In this document: positions 2,276 through 61,118 of the stretch, in pieces | Position numbering within the stretch: the first letter of the stretch is position 1 | Layout: every line of letters starts with the position of its first letter | From: Candidatus Poribacteria bacterium | GTDB taxonomy: Bacteria; Poribacteria; WGA-4E; WGA-3G | Length of the DNA stretch: 64,000 bases | Direction: 5' to 3' | Assembly (NCBI GenBank): GCA_965221425.1 | Contig: OZ244889.1 | Location: forward strand, 2,624,675-2,688,674 | Position numbers and translations under genes: made by a program | The notes under the pieces: model-generated | Databases searched by the model: none | Told to the model about the DNA's origin: nothing | What the model saw: only the letters and a program-made list of their open reading frames with translations

Positions 2276-4069
2276 GTGAAATATATTCTGTCTTTAGTCG
2301 GTGTTATTTTTTTGATGTTTTTTCAATTGAGTTGTGGATCCGATGAAGAAGTGAAAACCATGCCGGAAACAGAAGTTCCGGAAGCTGAAGTTATGGGCAC
2401 CGACCAGGGTAATTATGGGTTACCGATACTACCAGAAGTGAATCTGACGAGTATGTATGAAGCGGGAGTGCGTGAGTTAGAGGTGAACAGCGAACTTCAC
2501 CTGATAACTGTTCTTGATGGAACAGACAAAGTGTCAATCAAGGTGAAGTATTTAGGTATGCGTGACTTCAATTTCGGATTTCCGCTCTATGAGTTTGAGT
2601 TGACGGATCCGATAGTTGAAAAAATGGGCGGTATTGCCCAAGGCATGTCGGGCAGTCCTGTGGGTCCGGAAGGGCGTGTGATAGGAGCGTTAGCGTATGG
2701 GGATAGTTTCGGCACAGCACCATATCGTTTCTGGGCAACCGCTATTGATGCGATGGAGGAGGCGCGAGATCACAGTCCATTGGGCGAGTTCATGGATGCG
2801 CCGGGGGCACCGAGTGTTCACACGCGATGGGCGCCAATTAAAACCCCATTGGTCGTTAGCGGAATAAATCAGCGTCGGGTTGAAGATGTTAGCAAACGTC
2901 TTAGGTCATCGCGATTTGATGCGATCAATTTTGTTGCTGATGTCGGGGGTGCTCCCGCTAACGCACCAACTGTATCGGGTGATTTAGAAGCTGGTGACAT
3001 GATAGGTGTTGCTATCGCGACAGGCGATGTTGTCGATCTTACTGCTTACGGCACGGTGACACAAGTCTATAATGACGGTACGTTTGTAGCATTCGGACAT
3101 TCGTTTCGATATGATGGCGCAGTTTCATTGCCTGTATATCAAGCGATGACCGCTGGTATCGTTGCTAACTTACAAATCCCCTATAAATCTGTGGTTAAGT
3201 ACGGAGAACCAATCGGTACACTCACGAAGGATTTGAGTGCTGCTGTTGTCGGTGAACTTGGTGATCCACCGGACATGATACTTGTCACGGTGTCTTATCA
3301 TCCGATCAACAGTGATAAACCGATAAAGACAAAATCTGAGGTGGCTTATGGGCAAGAATGGGCAATTGCACCTGTTGTGGCGTGGACAGTAGACGCACTC
3401 AGACGTGAATGGACGGGTGGCACATCAGATGGGACATTGGTGCTATCGTTTGAGGAAACCAAAAAAACTTATACGCACCGGTGGCGGAATGTTTCGCCGG
3501 ACCCATTTTTTGATACCTATGAGAATCTCGATTATGCTGTGAGCGAATTCACAGACCCATTGAAAAATGCTGCGGGAAAGGCTACTTTGAAATTGATTTC
3601 TGTTGAGATAACGGACAAACCGCAGCTTGCATCGGCAGAAATAATAGATGTAAAGGTGCCGGATAACGTTCGCACTGGAACGCAGGTAACGATCACGGTT
3701 GTGCTATTACCGCATTGGAGTGTTGCCGAAGATGGTGAGCGGACGATTGAAAAAGACATATCGCTTAATATCCCATCCGATTTTGAAACGGGAAGAGTAG
3801 AGCTTAAAGTAGAAGCCCAAGCCGTCGACCTGTTTGACCTTATTTTTGATTTTGATTTTGATCTCGATTTTGATAGCGACACCGAAGATGAGGGCCCTCC
3901 GCAAACGCTTGACGAACTTATTGAGGAACGACAAGACAGAATATCAGAACCGGGAACGATCAAGGTAACGCTGGAAGCTAACGGTTCTTTAAAAGACATT
4001 GAGGAGGAACTCATACTTGACGATTACGTTGTTACCGGTGAAATCACGGATTTTATTTCCATAGAGTGA
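2276..4069 (+). CDS. lipoprotein serine peptidase, SpoIVB/S55-like (GMSGSP catalytic motif), with acidic (DF)n repeat tail
   Basis: GTG start with aggag RBS 8 nt upstream and a lipobox (FQLSC) signal. The motif GIAQGMSGSPV matches the SpoIVB-type active-site serine region. The C-terminal region DLFDLIFDFDFDLDFDSD is encoded by a gatttt hexanucleotide repeat. Confidence 0.5.
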   Translation: MKYILSLVGVIFLMFFQLSCGSDEEVKTMPETEVPEAEVMGTDQGNYGLPILPEVNLTSMYEAGVRELEVNSELHLITVLDGTDKVSIKVKYLGMRDFNFGFPLYEFELTDPIVEKMGGIAQGMSGSPVGPEGRVIGALAYGDSFGTAPYRFWATAIDAMEEARDHSPLGEFMDAPGAPSVHTRWAPIKTPLVVSGINQRRVEDVSKRLRSSRFDAINFVADVGGAPANAPTVSGDLEAGDMIGVAIATGDVVDLTAYGTVTQVYNDGTFVAFGHSFRYDGAVSLPVYQAMTAGIVANLQIPYKSVVKYGEPIGTLTKDLSAAVVGELGDPPDMILVTVSYHPINSDKPIKTKSEVAYGQEWAIAPVVAWTVDALRREWTGGTSDGTLVLSFEETKKTYTHRWRNVSPDPFFDTYENLDYAVSEFTDPLKNAAGKATLKLISVEITDKPQLASAEIIDVKVPDNVRTGTQVTITVVLLPHWSVAEDGERTIEKDISLNIPSDFETGRVELKVEAQAVDLFDLIFDFDFDLDFDSDTEDEGPPQTLDELIEERQDRISEPGTIKVTLEANGSLKDIEEELILDDYVVTGEITDFISIE

Positions 4070-11921: not shown

Positions 11922-11939
11922 AGTGAATACCACAAGCGT

Positions 11940-12110
11940 ATTCAGCGGGATTATAGTAAAATCCGAAAATATGTGGACATTTCAATGCACAACAATCCCT
12001 GTACCATAACGCTGGCGAGGCGGGGAATGCCTAAATGGCATTCATACCGTTGATTTCTTCCTGACCTTGCCAATGTCCAGGTAATTGTGAATTTCACTAT
12101 AAAACTAAAT
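11940..12110. repeat. family A/E repeat fragment
   Basis: attatagtaaaatccgaaaatatgtggacatttcaatg…cgctggcgaggcggggaatgcctaaatggcattcataccgttgatttcttcct is shared with 19002..19040 (inverted), 60700..60790 and other loci. Confidence 0.7.
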
Positions 12111-33629: not shown

Positions 33630-34400
33630 TCTGAATCGCAGAGAGCGCGGGTTTTGTATCGCAAACTTTTAGTTTGCGTTTTTTGACACAAACTGGAAAG
33701 TTTGTGCTACAGGTTCAAAGTGTGCCGTAATCCCTTGAAAAGCAACTTATTTCAACAAACCCTTTTCCGCGTCCTCCGCGCTCTCCGCGATTCAGACAAC
33801 ACGCGCGGGCAGATACCCACAGCGCGTGCCTACTCCTATGCAATACGCAATTTATATGCCAACTTCAAAACCGATATTCTACCAATTTCTGCACAAAAAT
33901 GTGCAGCTGCCGCTGCAGCTGCACAATATCGGGCATGTCTTTTGTATCGCAAACTTTTAGTTTGCGGTTTGTGGCACAAACTGGAAAGTTTGTGCTACAT
34001 TTTTTGGTGTCATCCGCGATTCAGACAACACGCACAGGCGGACGGCACCAAATCAACGGTATGAATGCCATTTAGGCATTCCCCGCAGCGTGTGCCTGCT
34101 ACTGTAACAAACTCCACCCTCCGTATCATTCGCGATTCTGATAGCAAATCGGTCCTTTTGCGAGGTTCGGAAGAAATCAAGAAATCAACGGTATGAATCA
34201 TGGCGAATGCCATACGGGGAATGCCATTAAGGCATTCATACCGTTGATTTGGCGCATTCGTCTTTAGCCATTCCCCGGGTATGAATCATGACGAATACGC
34301 ATAAGGTATTCGCCATGATTCCCCGCCTCGTCTGCAGAGGTGTACACTTGTCTCATGTAGACAGAAAATTGCCGAATTAATAAATTAATCTTCATTCAAG
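33630..34400. repeat. nested repeat island (families C, D, A, H)
   Basis: tgtctgaatcgcagag / cgcgattcagacaac ends (family C) at 33630, 33787, 34015 and 34127. The tgtatcgcaaacttttagtttgcg…cacaaactggaaagtttgtgctac module (family D) occurs twice (33655..33712, 33942..34000). Multiple interleaved family A cores lie between 34050 and 34340. Confidence 0.7.
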
Positions 34401-36406: not shown

Positions 36407-36740
36407 GGTATGTAAAGTTTTTGGCATGTGTTGTCTGAATCGCGGATTGCGCAGATTGCGCGGATTTTAACACACTGTCCGAGAAGTGTTTTACTCCAAT
36501 CAGCGTCCTGATATCCTATAGACAAACGATGCTCTTCTGCTGGCAGAAAAATCTGTCAGCATCATAGTCATAATCCGCGAAGTCCGGGGAATGAAGTTTA
36601 AATAGATATTTCGGTAATTTTGCGAAGTTAGGAAACCTCGCAAAATTACCCAATTTATTTTTTTATCTTCATAATGGCATTCATACCGTTGATTTGGTGG
36701 CAATCCGCGATTCAGACAACTGACAAAATATTTACACACC
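36407..36740. mobile_element. composite MITE: family C shell with family A element nested inside
   Basis: The ends ggtatgtaaagtttttggcatgtgttgtctgaatcgcggat … atccgcgattcagacaactgacaaaatatttacacaccc are inverted. The interior carries the A core …gcgaagttaggaaacctcgcaaaattacccaatttatttttttatcttcat…ggcattcataccgttgattt. Confidence 0.65.
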
Positions 36741-43058: not shown

Positions 43059-43368
43059 GTATGTAAATATTTTGGCAAAAGTTTGGGCTAAGGTGCGTTG
43101 TCCACGACATTTCCCATTTTTGCTGTCTGAATCGCGGATTTCACCAAATCAACGGTATGAATGCGCGTATGGCATTCCCCGGATGACGCGGATTATTCTT
43201 ATCCTATACAAATAAACACATCCAAGAAGAATTAACACAAGGCGTATACAGGTATACATCTCTATCCGCCATCCTCTCAAGGACGATTTGGAATGTCAAA
43301 CACATAATCCGCGTACTTCCGCGTCATCCGCGATTCAGACAACACGCATGCCAAAAACTTTACACACC
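43059..43368. mobile_element. composite MITE: family C shell with family A fragment nested
   Basis: ggtatgtaaatattttggcaaaagtttgggc…tgtctgaatcgcggat … atccgcgattcagacaacacgcatgccaaaaactttacacacc. The interior carries aaatcaacggtatgaatgcgcgtatggcattcccc. Confidence 0.65.
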
Positions 43369-50819: not shown

Positions 50820-51161
50820 AACCGGATGGGCGTTTCTCTGTATACGAAGGGCGGTGTTTATAACCGTCCTTTTGCTTTTCAGTTGGTAGTAATGTTATCA
50901 TTCAAATTTCTTCTTTAGAAAATTGAGTGCTTCGTCAAGAATTAATAAAAAGAACCCTCCATAAATTGCTATTATGAAGTGAAGAAACAGACCATCTTCT
51001 ATGAAACGGACAAAAGCCACCAATATAGTAAACTTTAGAATTAATTGGACATTAGGATCGGTTTGGTCAGAAAACCGAAACTAACGCAGACACTGTAGTA
51101 CAACCTGTATGAGAATAAAAAAATAAATTAGGTAATTCGTGGAAATATCCAGTGCGGTTAG

Positions 51162-51324
51162 ATGAAGATTAAAAAATAAATTGAGTAATATAGCGAGGTT
51201 AGGAAACCTCGCCAGCAGAGATACACACCTGCTGATGGCGAGGCGGGGAATGCCTAAATGGCATTCATACCGTTGATTTCTTCCTAACCTCGCCAAATTA
51301 CCGAATTAATAACTTAAACTTCAT
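51162..51324. mobile_element. MITE-like palindromic element family A, complete copy
   Basis: atgaagattaaaaaataaattgagtaatatagcgaggttaggaaacctcgccagcagagatacacacctgctgatggcgaggcggggaatgcctaaatggcattcataccgttgatttcttcctaacctcgccaaattaccgaattaataacttaaacttcat. TIRs are about 45 nt and an internal hairpin is present. Confidence 0.8.
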
Positions 51325-51683
51325 GAAACCGCACCTACCGGGTTTGGGGGAAATTAGAATTACCCACTAAAAAACTTAATCTTCATTTAGGTTATGTTCC
51401 GTTTCTGCCCAACCTAACAAGTTGTGCTACAAAATATGCCCTTTAATTCTAAATGTCACTATATAAGAAAACAGATAACAATTACCCGAAAAAATCGCAT
51501 GATTTCTCCTTCCTAATTCCGACAGGATTTTGTAATTTGAGGGTGGGACAACAGAAAACCCACAATAAATTGTGATTGAACACTGTAACACTTGAAAATA
51601 GCCAAAATGCGTAAGTCATCTTTTTGTTGTTTTCATAACAATCATTATATCATTATGAAAAGTAGATACAAAGCATATTTAAG

Positions 51684-53191: not shown

Positions 53192-54049
53192 CTACTTTAA
53201 TCTTGCCCTATTTGCATCCCACATCTCAGTCTCGGAGTAAATCTGTGGGGGTGTTATTGGGGTTAACGTTGGTGTCCAGTCTGGTTGGAATTGTTGAACC
53301 AGCCGTACAGCATTTTGATATGCAATCCGTTCTTTTGTCTCATCATCAAGGTGTGCAGATTCAATCTGTGCTTGAACAAGGCGAAAATCATAGTATGGCA
53401 GATCACTACCGAACATAATTCTATCGTTACCGAGGTTATTGACAAGGTGTACTAAGTCCCAACTTTCATCCCCCTCAGGTTTTTGCGCAACATCATACCA
53501 TATATTTTCTTGTTTCCCACAATGCGCAATTGCATCAAGGTGTCCTGCTTTGTTCATTGAGACATGTCCGATAATGAACGTAATTGTCGGGAACCTTTGT
53601 GCATACGCAGCGATATTTTGTGTTGAACCTGCCTGATGTAGCAAACACAACCCGTTGTGCATTGCTACCACTTCCAGGAATGCGTATAATTCTCCACCAA
53701 GTGAATGTCCGGATAACGCCGGATGGCACGCGAATCCGACTAAGCCATCGTCACACATTGCCCTATCCAGCTCGTCCACGCCTGCTTGTTCATGCCGCAC
53801 TTCTACAATTCCAAGCCCGATGGGAAAACGTTCCGGGTACTTTCGGCAAGCATTTGCAATAACCTCGTTCTGTGCGCGCGTATCTAATACACCGCGCGCT
53901 TGCGGCCCGCCAGCTGTCGGACACGGAATCGCACCAATAACATTTGCCGAAGCCATCCTGGCAAGACATCGTCCAACACTCTGTCCAATAACCGGCGCGC
54001 GTGATACCGTCATGCCGATGTGGCAGTGTACATCAAAATAAGAAAGCAT
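53192..54049 (-). CDS. amidohydrolase-2 family (TIM-barrel metal-dependent hydrolase)
   Basis: N-terminal FDVHCHIG and an internal HxxH…D pattern. Confidence 0.65.
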   Translation of the reverse strand: MLSYFDVHCHIGMTVSRAPVIGQSVGRCLARMASANVIGAIPCPTAGGPQARGVLDTRAQNEVIANACRKYPERFPIGLGIVEVRHEQAGVDELDRAMCDDGLVGFACHPALSGHSLGGELYAFLEVVAMHNGLCLLHQAGSTQNIAAYAQRFPTITFIIGHVSMNKAGHLDAIAHCGKQENIWYDVAQKPEGDESWDLVHLVNNLGNDRIMFGSDLPYYDFRLVQAQIESAHLDDETKERIAYQNAVRLVQQFQPDWTPTLTPITPPQIYSETEMWDANRARLK

Positions 54050-54148
54050 AAGTCAACCTCTTTATAGTGAAACCTATAATTAACGTGAACTCGGTAAAAT
54101 CTTTGTAGAGCAAACTGTTAGTTTGCGTTCCACAGATGCACAAACTAA

Positions 54149-54468
54149 ATGAAGATTAAAAAATAAATTGGGTAATATAGCGAGGTTAGGAAGAAATCAA
54201 CGGTATGAATGCCATTTAGGCATTCCCCGCCTCGCCAGCAGAGATACACACCTGCTGATGGCAAGGCGGAGAATCATGGCGAATACCATACGGGGAATGC
54301 CATACGCGCATTCATACCGTTGATTTGGCGTATTCGCCCAATGGCATTCATACCCGGGGAATCATGGCGAATACCACACGCGTATTCGCCCAACGTCATT
54401 CATACCGTTGATTTCTTGATTTCTTCCTAACCTCGCAAAATTACCGAATTAATAACTTAAACTTCATA
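54149..54468. mobile_element. nested family A MITE cluster (≥3 interleaved copies)
   Basis: The outer ends atgaagattaaaaaataaattgggtaatatagcgaggttaggaa … ttcctaacctcgcaaaattaccgaattaataacttaaacttcat enclose several ggcattcataccgttgattt / catggcgaataccatacgggg sub-units. A family D palindrome sits immediately upstream (54103..54148). Confidence 0.75.
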
Positions 54469-54573
54469 AAGTTTGTGCGACAAGCTCACGTTGTCCGTAG
54501 CAACTTGAGTAATTATAGCAGAAGCAAGTTCTGGATGCAAGGTTTTGCCATTTTGATTCAGAACCATTCAGGA

Positions 54574-54602
54574 ATTGACATAACTTAAAATGTTTGTTAT
54601 AA
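54574..54602 (+). promoter_or_regulatory. perfect-consensus sigma70 promoter (TTGACA-17-TATAAT) for modA
   Basis: ttgacataacttaaaatgtttgttataat, 38 nt upstream of the modA ATG. Confidence 0.55.
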
Positions 54603-54640
54603 TTTTTTTCGCGTTAACCCACGATTTAGGCTAAATCATT

Positions 54641-55432
54641 ATGTTTCAACACGCTAAATTTTACACATTTTTTGTGTTTTTGTTTATATTTACAGAACTT
54701 CTGGGATGTGGAAATAGACAAAAAGCCCCTGAATTAAGAGTTTTTGGTGCAGTGAGTTTGACAGATGCTTTGACTGATATAGGCAAGCTGTTCACTGCAA
54801 AGCAAGGTGTTAAAGTCAGCTATAATTTTGCGGCATCTTCAACGCTGCAACGTCAAATTGAAAAAGGGGCATCGGTAGATGTTTTCATTTCAGCAAGTCC
54901 TCAACAAGTTACCGCGCTTGAAACCCGTGATATGCTTGAAACAGATAGTCGTCACAACATCTTGTCAAACCGGTTAGTCCTTGTTTCTCATAAAAACGCT
55001 GTTTTATCTGTAGAAACTGTTGATACGCTTGCCGATGATGCTGTTTCGCGAATTGCTATTGGACAGCCTGAAATTGTGCCTGCTGGCACTTATGCAAAAG
55101 AGGCTTTGGAACGACTTGGCCTGTGGAAAAAGGTACTACCAAAGTTAGTCTTTGGGATAGATGTGCGAGCGACACTTGCTTATGTCAGTGCAGGAAATGT
55201 TGACGTAGCGATTGTCTATCAAACAGACGTAACACTGAGCAAAAATGTCAAAATACTTTATGAATTTCCTGACAAAACCCACAAACCTATAGTATATCCT
55301 GCAGTTGTTCTGAAAGATAGTCAACAAAAACAGTTAGCGCAACAATTTATTACGTTTTTAAAAACATCTCGTGCCACTAAAATTTTCGAGAAACACGGAT
55401 TTGCTTGTTTAACATCAGATTCTACACAGTAG
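54641..55432 (+). CDS. modA: molybdate ABC transporter substrate-binding protein
   Basis: Signal peptide; LRVFGAVSLTDAL…VSYNFAASSTLQRQIEKGASVDVFISA matches the ModA pattern. Confidence 0.85.
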   Translation: MFQHAKFYTFFVFLFIFTELLGCGNRQKAPELRVFGAVSLTDALTDIGKLFTAKQGVKVSYNFAASSTLQRQIEKGASVDVFISASPQQVTALETRDMLETDSRHNILSNRLVLVSHKNAVLSVETVDTLADDAVSRIAIGQPEIVPAGTYAKEALERLGLWKKVLPKLVFGIDVRATLAYVSAGNVDVAIVYQTDVTLSKNVKILYEFPDKTHKPIVYPAVVLKDSQQKQLAQQFITFLKTSRATKIFEKHGFACLTSDSTQ

Positions 55433-57664: not shown

Positions 57665-57746
57665 TTATTCAACACGTTTTCTTACACAGGTGTCTTTATA
57701 CAAGGCACCTGTGTTTTATAAACCATGACGGACGCATTCCCCTTGA

Positions 57747-57908
57747 ATGAAGTTTAAATAAATATTTCGGTAATTGGCAAGGTTAGGAAACCTTGCCAGC
57801 AGCAGGTGTACATCTCTGCTGGCGAGGCGGGGAATGCCATTTAGGCATTCATACCGTTGATTTCTTCCTAACCTCGCAAAATTACCCAATTTATTTTTTT
57901 ATCTTCAT
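57747..57908. mobile_element. MITE-like element family A, complete copy
   Basis: atgaagtttaaataaatatttcggtaattggcaaggttaggaaaccttgccagcagcaggtgtacatctctgctggcgaggcggggaatgccatttaggcattcataccgttgatttcttcctaacctcgcaaaattacccaatttatttttttatcttcat. Confidence 0.8.
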
Positions 57909-59139: not shown

Positions 59140-59305
59140 ATTTCCTAACTACACACTTAGAAATCGGTATGCAAAGTAGTAGGCACACTCTGCGGGGAAT
59201 GCCTAAATGGCATTCATACCGTTGATTTGGTGCCGTCTATACCCCCAAAGAATGTGTGTGGCGGACGGCACGCGGAGCGTGCCTGCTACTTTTAAATCAA
59301 CGCTA
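59140..59305. repeat. family A/H repeat fragment
   Basis: ggggaatgcctaaatggcattcataccgttgatttgg together with agtaggcacactctgcgg / ggcacgcggagcgtgcctgctact (family H, also at 34080 and 61575). Confidence 0.6.
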
Positions 59306-60699: not shown

Positions 60700-61118
60700 A
60701 TAGTGAAATCCAAAAATATGTTTACATTTCAATCAACAACAATCCCTACACACACTCTCGCTGGCGAGGCGGGGAATCAAGGCGTATACCTTATGCGTAT
60801 TCATACCGTTGATTTCTTCCCAACCTTGCCAACCTAAAGGTAATTATAATAAAACCTATAATTAATGGGACATTTCTGTATCGCAAACTGTCAGTTTGCG
60901 TCAAATATGCACAATCTAAATGAAGTTTAAGTTATTAATTCGGTAATTTTGCGAGGTTAGGAAACCTCGCCAGCAGAGATACACACCTGCTGATGGCAAG
61001 GCGGGGAATGCCTAAATGGCATTCATACCCGGGGAATGACTAAACGTCATTCATACCGTTGATTTTTTGATTTCTTCCTAACCTCGCTATATTACCCAAT
61101 TTATTTTTTAATCTTCAT
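60700..61118. mobile_element. nested repeat cluster (family E/A fragment, family D palindrome, complete family A element 60920..61118)
   Basis: tagtgaaatccaaaaatatgtttacatttcaatc…cgctggcgaggcggggaatcaagg; ctgtatcgcaaactgtcagtttgcg; then atgaagtttaagttattaattcggtaattttgcgaggttaggaaacc…ttcctaacctcgctatattacccaatttattttttaatcttcat. Confidence 0.75.

Follow-up and report, generated by a model that had tools for sequence, protein, structure and literature searches.

The stretch at positions 54149-54468 is probably a single family-A MITE that is lodged in a host palindrome's loop and was enlarged by nested copies of two small modules, M and B, moved by a structure-dependent enzyme acting in trans. 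Positions refer to the window, i.e. the whole 64-kb stretch of DNA analyzed. The structure is a nest of five levels (palindrome > MITE > M > B > M): its inner units are four copies of a 36-nt hairpin-plus-tail module, M, and two copies of a 24-25-nt hairpin, B, stacked in one another, and insertion of these smaller hairpin modules in the MITE and in each other has doubled the element in size relative to its sister copies. For M, we observed discrete ends, seamless presence or absence, a conserved hairpin, very recent change, and sites in hairpin loops, at stem-loop junctions and at its own core/tail junction. The features of the locus are as follows:

53192-54049, minus strand: divergent amidohydrolase gene
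54110-54126: host palindrome P1 (GCAAACT GTT AGTTTGC), uninterrupted in the window
54138-54478: host palindrome P2, split by the MITE, with arms GCACAAACT (54138-54146) and AGTTTGTGC (54470-54478)
54146-54149 (left) and 54467-54470 (right): TAAA, possible target-site duplication
54150-54466, plus strand: single family-A MITE, 317 bp, TG...CA termini, one end pair in 54100-54520
54150-54192, plus strand: left terminal inverted repeat, variant v1, 43/43 identical to v1 of the copy at 60921-61117
54193-54229, minus strand: module M_L, 36-nt M plus 1 nt, mirror image of the right-arm site
54230-54266, plus strand: central hairpin of the MITE (CCTCGCCAGCAG-AGATACACAC-CTGCTGATGGCAAGG), 37/37 identical to the copy at 60921-61117
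54267-54354, plus strand: module M_a, with its 5' part at 54267-54274 and its 3' core at 54339-54354
54275-54338, plus strand: hairpin B1, split by M_c, left arm 54275-54290, right arm 54327-54338
54291-54326, plus strand: module M_c, 36 nt, in the loop of B1
54355-54414, plus strand: module M_b with its own tail (GTTGATTT, 54407-54414), between the core and the tail of M_a
54363-54390, plus strand: hairpin B2, unbroken, capping M_b and lengthening it by a net 24 nt over core 2 of the copy at 60921-61117
54415-54423, plus strand: displaced tail of M_a (CTTGATTT) plus C, tail proper 54415-54422
54424-54466, plus strand: right terminal inverted repeat, variant v2, 43/43 identical to v2 of the copy at 60921-61117
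54575-54603, plus strand: promoter-like site for modA, outside the MITE (TTGACA-17-TATAAT with TG, 12/12 matches)
54641-55432, plus strand: modA-like molybdate-binding protein gene (SBP_bac_11 match; NCBI names of cluster members)

That the outer element is one MITE follows from two comparisons. A search with both 43-nt ends found each exactly once in 54100-54520. When 54150-54466 is aligned to the 161-bp sister copy at 51163-51323, the MITE ends and the central hairpin are present once and only sister positions 82-117, which correspond to module M, recur. The ends and the hairpin being single, with nothing but these positions repeated, we conclude that one family-A MITE occupies the site. It is non-coding, with only mechanical ORFs of 51 and 73 aa crossing the repeats. 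The outer inverted repeats, counted with the host palindrome, have arms of 63 nt (54138-54200 and 54416-54478) that are 84% complementary, and the 341-nt stretch is predicted to fold at -92.8 kcal/mol, against -37.8 in shuffled sequences (z = -15.9).

The site is empty in related genomes. P2 is intact and free of the MITE in two relatives, L032 and L003 (GCACAAACTAACAGTTTGTGC), and in a third, L034, it is fused with P1 and likewise carries no MITE; all three spacers are syntenic, with flanks 94-97% identical to the window. A fourth relative, L001, has a MITE at the same P2 site with a largely different interior. P1, the palindrome upstream, holds a second MITE in L001 and likewise in L032. At the center of P1, where these two have the MITE, L003 has an M-family unit instead (3733-3789): a 57-nt, long-stem variant with the GTTGATTT tail, in reverse orientation and centered in the palindrome. 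The window, L001, L032 and L003 have two palindromes, P1 and P2, whereas L034 has one at 3820-3840, GCAAACTTTTAGTTTGTGC; this single palindrome is either the ancestral state or the product of a deletion between P1 and P2.

The center of a palindrome is the site of all seven MITE copies that retain both ends (7/7), and at least four palindrome families serve as hosts. TAAA flanks the MITE on both sides; other copies show TAAA/TACA or no repeat, and the orthologous L001/L032 pair shows an overlap of just 1 nt. Neither the window nor the 1.1 Mb of fetched loci yielded a pair of MITE ends at IS-sized spacing. At 36593-36670, a minimal 78-bp family-A copy, composed of the ends and an 8-nt loop and devoid of both central hairpin and M, lies within an M hairpin, so that MITE and module can host each other.

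The interior was resolved by comparison with sister copies, of which the window holds three: 51163-51323 (161 bp), 60921-61117 (197 bp) and one of ~161 bp around 57745/57747-57907. Together with the copy under study they form a length series, 161 to 197 (+36) to 317 bp (+36+36+24+24), in which the shared parts are about 97.5-100% identical. The closest copy is 60921-61117: its ends match in 86/86 bases, its central hairpin is identical, and elsewhere in the shared parts an M core and the displaced tail have a single mismatch each. The ends of the remaining sister copies are about 93-98% identical. The interior of 54150-54466 equals that of 60921-61117 plus M_L (36), B1 (24 net), M_c (36) and B2 (24 net). 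Aside from the inserts it carries, M_a matches core 1 of that copy, and M_b matches core 2, down to a rare GTC stem variant. M_L is absent at the matching position in 51163-51323 and at the left-hand (v2-side) position in 60921-61117. Hairpin B1 has uninterrupted counterparts in B2 of the same element and in L001 at 3692-3731, and the 88-nt and 52-nt units of the locus differ by the segment M_c. The order of units on the right, core1-core2-tail-tail', is nested and not head-to-tail, from which we deduce that M_b separated the M_a core from its tail by inserting there. Over 72 nt the left arm mirrors the right one, and GAAT/ATTC words are common to all units.

The interior has also been rearranged. 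Between the four sister copies (51163-51323, 57745-57907, 60921-61117 and 54150-54466), the block that comprises central hairpin and M array is flipped with respect to v1 and v2; the central hairpin, in particular, is inverted in 60921-61117. This suggests a flip-flop inversion between the inner inverted repeats of the MITE. The composite B[M] is inverted as one unit in 34182-34340, the L001 form is explicable by a 14-nt deletion between ATACG repeats, and the gain of B is not clean, with either 5 nt replaced or 25 nt inserted with a loop change. Given the inverted interiors, the deletion form and the unclean B gain, inversion, short deletions and possibly gene conversion are also at work. The sequence-only reading had noted a similar pattern elsewhere in the window, and comparable compound structures are indeed present at 34140-34396 and 60921-61117. 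Its suggestion of recent activity is also plausible, with identical 43-nt ends around different interiors and a site that is empty in relatives about 95% identical. As a separate observation, a 433-nt composite block (51040-51472) is absent from L001 and L034 at CACCAATATA^AGAAAACAG. Within it lie a palindrome (GTGCGGTT/AACCGCAC), the MITE copy 51163-51323 and an outer repeat, and the block, with a possible TATA duplication, makes another multi-level nest.

Module M is 36 nt long, CGGGGAATGCC-N4-5-GGCATTCATACCGTTGATTT, and forms a bulged hairpin (CGG-GG-GAATGCC / GGCATTC-ATA-CCG) followed by a 3' TTGATTT tail. There are 15 M tails in the 64-kb window, where a 20-mer core also has 14 matches against 0.01 expected; the core copies are clustered, with seven pairs no more than 250 nt apart against 0.8 expected (P = 2e-5). 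Metagenomes scanned with a 17-mer gave 120 loci (435 kb of sponge-metagenome loci), of which 66 contain M in full, with 103 simple copies between them. The remaining matches, about 54 of the 120, and the 21 matches in IMG/VR were rejected as M: they are without the M hairpin and by appearance are chance or coding matches. Annotated plasmid and phage collections gave no match to the repeats. The ends of M are constant across about 90 different flanking contexts: information content is 1.1-2.0 bits inside M and drops to at most 0.7 bit right outside CGGG...GATTT (84 distinct flanks), and more than 15 of the host contexts are unrelated. The stem pairs as TGCC/GGCA 67 times and as one of five alternative Watson-Crick variants 24 times, giving a covariation score of 0.130 against 0.076, with nine double-change cells and none of 500 shuffles scoring as high. 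These compensatory changes argue that the M hairpin is maintained.

What M selects as a site can be read from its flanks. The earlier reading had the element prefer itself as a target, which holds for M in part: 14 of 93 contexts have M exactly between the core and the tail of another M (CATACC|M|[CT]TTGATTT), and about 10 more have it in the loop of an M-like hairpin; the range is broader, however, and covers single-stranded parts of hairpins in general, the hosts whose loops are occupied including unrelated palindromes, REP-like repeats and MITEs. Complementarity between the two host flanks of M exceeds that of partner-shuffled flanks (4.19 vs 3.17; 0/200 shuffles). Of 94 contexts, 42 have the dinucleotide CC just 5' of the module, compared with a background frequency of about 4%, and among these 94 no longer motif beside M is conserved.

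Filled and empty versions of the same site are available at every level of the nest except the B hairpin. In the orthologous MITE, L032 is empty at GGCGAGG^TTTCCTAACC (GGCGAGG^TTTCC) and L001 has an 80-nt M complex exactly there, with neither repeat nor microhomology at the junction. Among paralogues, a GTAG-tagged REP-like repeat (GCGACC^TCCCGGTCGC) has a 35-nt insert in L130 and none in L090, with flanks 100% identical and again no microhomology. Further paralogous pairs, their flanks nearly identical, were found in a heptamer array (TTATCC^TGCTAATCC), in the loops of M-like (B) hairpins (ACCATACG^CGTATTC, eight pairs) and at the core/tail junction of another M (ATACC^GTTGATTT). No target duplication was seen in any M filled/empty pair compared. 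Note that most "empty" M sites are paralogues, not true ancestors, and that the base beside the insert often differs between the filled and empty versions.

M also turned up in several other repeats. A second MITE-like family (TATAGTGAAATCC[GA]AAAATATGT...), present at 11930-12100 and 60700-60830 and at about 8560-8690 of L034, carries M at a GGCGAGG^...TTCC[TC][GA]ACCTTGCC site. Unrelated repeats with M inside lie at 34050-34085 and 59193-59228 (GGCACAC..CTG|M|GGTGCC) and at 43146-43181 (ATCCGCGATTCAGACAAC-type). In sponge-metagenome contigs, a GTAG-tagged REP-like doublet (CTGTAGGAGCGACC-TCCC-GGTCGCGACCAGGAGGTCGCTCC) occurs with or without M in its first loop (L090 7140-7201, L130, L118, L087 and many Ga02095xx, LXNI and LXNJ contigs), and heptamer arrays (ATCCTGN) that host M come from the same group of loci.

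Poribacteria are sponge symbionts, and Candidatus Poribacteria is the source of every modA relative found, the best of which are 94-95% identical in protein. A cyanobacterial origin of the window, with repeats of the Nostoc SDR or Nezha kind, was rejected on the strength of these relatives. Searches for exact matches to the window's own ModA protein and to P0123 gave none. The stretch lies in the spacer between the minus-strand amidohydrolase gene and the plus-strand modA-like gene. The promoter-like site of modA is identical in L001-L003 and shows minor changes in L004-L009, despite differing upstream DNA or neighbor. In the window it is a perfect extended -10 promoter sequence of sigma-70 type (TTGACA-17-TGnTATAAT) 5' of modA. 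In a more distant Poribacteria locus (L008, 3200-3800), what appears by eye to be a fragment of a DDE-type (IS4-like) transposase replaces the amidohydrolase upstream of modA.

Five other explanations have to be weighed against nested M and B modules in a single MITE. The sequence-only reading saw three or more complete 163-bp family-A MITEs inserted in one another, and the picture it drew from is largely there: of the strings it quoted, gaaatcaacggtatgaatgcc (54193-54213), catggcgaataccatacgggg (54275-54295) and cgtattcgcc (54329-54338 and 54381-54390) are exact, ggcattcataccgttgattt has no exact copy and is approached most closely at 54307-54326 and 54395-54414 with one mismatch each, and the core half-sites do alternate in orientation between the long outer inverted repeats, with one inverted in the left arm and three direct in the right. 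Whole-MITE nesting would, however, multiply parts that are single here, namely the 43-nt ends and the central hairpin, and we regard it as highly improbable. Re-insertion itself stands, the re-inserting unit being the 36-nt M and the 24-25-nt B and not the 163-bp element. Alignment to the 161-bp sister, in line with the manual alignment that had been advised, delimits these modules; the target-site duplications that were to be delimited with them are absent at the inner insertions. The proposed comparison with related genomes was borne out by the empty sites of L032, L003 and L034. A tandem array could instead have arisen by replication slippage, named at the outset as the outcome that would overturn nesting, or by unequal crossing-over; this reading could draw on a 60-nt direct repeat at spacing 88 (78% identical) and on TTGATTTC, repeated 2.2 times. 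With the minimum score set to 30, Tandem Repeats Finder nevertheless returned only that 2.2-fold repeat, an 8-nt duplication; one of the two units exceeds the other by exactly one 36-nt M, their order is nested, and the same insert is found in unrelated hosts. With the sharp ends of M, its seamless filled/empty pairs and its loop and core/tail-junction targets, nested insertion is supported and slippage is refuted; we leave it scarcely any weight. A functional structured RNA or a regulatory operator array for modA or the amidohydrolase gene would suit a position between two divergent genes, a very stable predicted structure and compensatory stem changes. It is improbable all the same: Rfam gave no match to the locus at E <= 1, the element is missing from the spacers of L034, L032 and L003 while the modA promoter is conserved, and its modules occur in both orientations at dozens of unrelated loci. 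An assembly artefact is unlikely, the same architecture recurring in independent assemblies.

The strongest competitor dispenses with a transposase. Hairpins would stall replication, or their tips would be cut, and template switching or gene conversion would copy dispersed hairpin modules into palindrome centers; the same process would flip interiors and symmetrize arms. Much of the locus would fit such a process, including the interiors inverted relative to distinguishable ends between sister copies, the inversion of B[M] as a unit (34182-34340), the 72-nt mirror image in the left arm, the unclean gain of B with junction bases that differ between filled and empty versions, and the GAAT/ATTC words that could act as microhomology. 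The window and the 1.1 Mb fetched gave no enzyme, and neither the inverted interiors nor the mosaic forms nor the symmetrical left-arm M would require a transposase, since recombination or template switching could produce each of them. Against it stand the two end points of M, unchanged across about 90 unrelated flanks, the lack of microhomology where junctions are cleanest (L001/L032 and L130/L090), and length increments quantized at 36 and 24 nt. Template switching explains the inversions and mosaics but not constant ends in unrelated flanks without microhomology, and we consider this whole alternative rather unlikely as the main process.

In the preferred reading, that of modules moved in trans into a palindrome-borne MITE, M_a occupies the loop of the MITE's subterminal hairpin (GCGAGG^TTTCCTAACCTCGC) and M_b the core/tail junction of M_a; B1 caps M_a and B2 caps M_b, M_c lies in the B1 loop, and the mirror-image M_L lies in the left arm. 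M and B are probably moved by an enzyme that cuts and joins single-stranded hairpin DNA and leaves no target duplication, much as HUH/Y1 enzymes do in REP-RAYT or IS200/IS605 systems. The loops of hairpins that are extruded or being replicated would be open to it as targets, so that palindromes would accumulate guests and grow, and inversion between hairpin arms together with short deletions would reshuffle the interior. Searches for candidate enzymes gave the following: tblastn with E. coli RayT over the 1.1 Mb fetched returned nothing significant (best E-value 0.014, in a contig where the 17-mer is without M hairpin context), a HUH...Y motif scan for HUH/Y1-like ORFs in the window and the 1.1 Mb fetched gave nothing credible, and no transposase was obvious by eye among the 48 large ORFs of the window.

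Among known systems, the closest in form are the REP, BIME and REPIN elements, which are short imperfect palindromes of high copy number, intergenic, arranged in mosaic arrays of alternating orientation and thought to be mobilized as single-stranded hairpins by RAYT, a Y1 HUH protein (PMC3116915, PMC2817692, PMC3733652). A REP bears an unpaired GTAG or CGTC at one of its ends as a conserved tag (PMC3733652), and the cognate RAYT gene usually has the repeats on its flanks. M resembles them as a short imperfect palindrome with many extragenic copies, but it starts with CGGGG and has no GTAG or CGTC 5' tag, GTAG being confined to some of its host repeats; it ends in a 3' TTGATTT tail, it occupies loops within other repeats, GTAG-tagged REPs included, and no RAYT was found in the 1.1 Mb fetched. 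Members of the IS200/IS605 family insert and excise seamlessly with no target duplication and need hairpins in single-stranded DNA; they have a hairpin at each end and insert beside a fixed 4-5-nt target. M shares the seamless junctions and the lack of target duplication (L001/L032, L130/L090, L059/L057 and the B-loop pairs), whereas it has one hairpin plus a 3' tail and only a loose 5' preference for CC.

Nostoc small dispersed repeats SDR4-6, with units of 21-27 nt, were reportedly described by Elhai et al. in 2008 in Genome Res 18:1484, and are said to nest within MITEs. SDR5 is cited as inserting between the third and fourth base of the HIP1 palindrome (PMC4390886). As far as the SDRs are portrayed in such citing literature, M is like them a very small module with precise insertion in other repeats or palindromes; M is longer, at 36 nt against 21-27 nt, B (24-25 nt) falls within the SDR range, and the host phylum is Poribacteria and not cyanobacteria. 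For the MITE, the parallel is with REP-targeting IS elements (IS1397, ISKpn1, IS621, ISPsy8, ISPa11 and others), which insert specifically into palindromic repeats (PMC1525189). The family-A MITE has palindromic targets in 7/7 copies and, as in the IS3 family, TG...CA termini; REP-targeting IS are full elements that recognize one REP, whereas the MITE enters at least four palindrome families and no parent IS was found. Length variation by gain and loss of sub-modules appears in a table of pneumococcal BOX (A-Bn-C) and of ERIC variants with internal inserts (PMC3184786). BOX sub-modules are arranged head-to-tail, whereas the present modules are nested in each other's hairpins and also occur without the MITE. 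The exact repeat strings did not occur in the literature searched, and the top-ranked results held nothing that combines Poribacteria with MITE, REP or RAYT.

Overall, the behavior of M most resembles, by analogy, either single-strand, hairpin-dependent transposition (REP/RAYT, IS200/IS605) or the cyanobacterial SDRs, and the nested modules point to very small, apparently recently active mobile DNA. To our knowledge, mobile DNA of less than 40 nt is barely understood, and how the cyanobacterial SDRs move has been a question since 2008. The locus provides an unusually clean record in this respect, with three sister copies in 64 kb, steps of +36 and +24, and filled and empty sites both orthologous and paralogous. 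The target rule is clear, i.e. hairpin loops and the module's own core/tail junction, which makes the movement of tiny repeats testable. We propose, tentatively, that M, and perhaps B, may represent a class of ultra-small mobile DNA, as yet undescribed, that in Poribacteria inserts seamlessly, directed by structure, in any hairpin loop including its own, through a non-canonical enzyme. Such palindromic regions may be hard to assemble, which is relevant to MAG quality. For the uncultivated symbiont, the locus shows the build-up of long, potentially recombinogenic palindromes near promoters; if M and B are such a mobile class, palindromes would grow from the inside like Russian dolls, by means of an enzyme that would be neither a canonical RAYT nor a canonical IS200/IS605 transposase.
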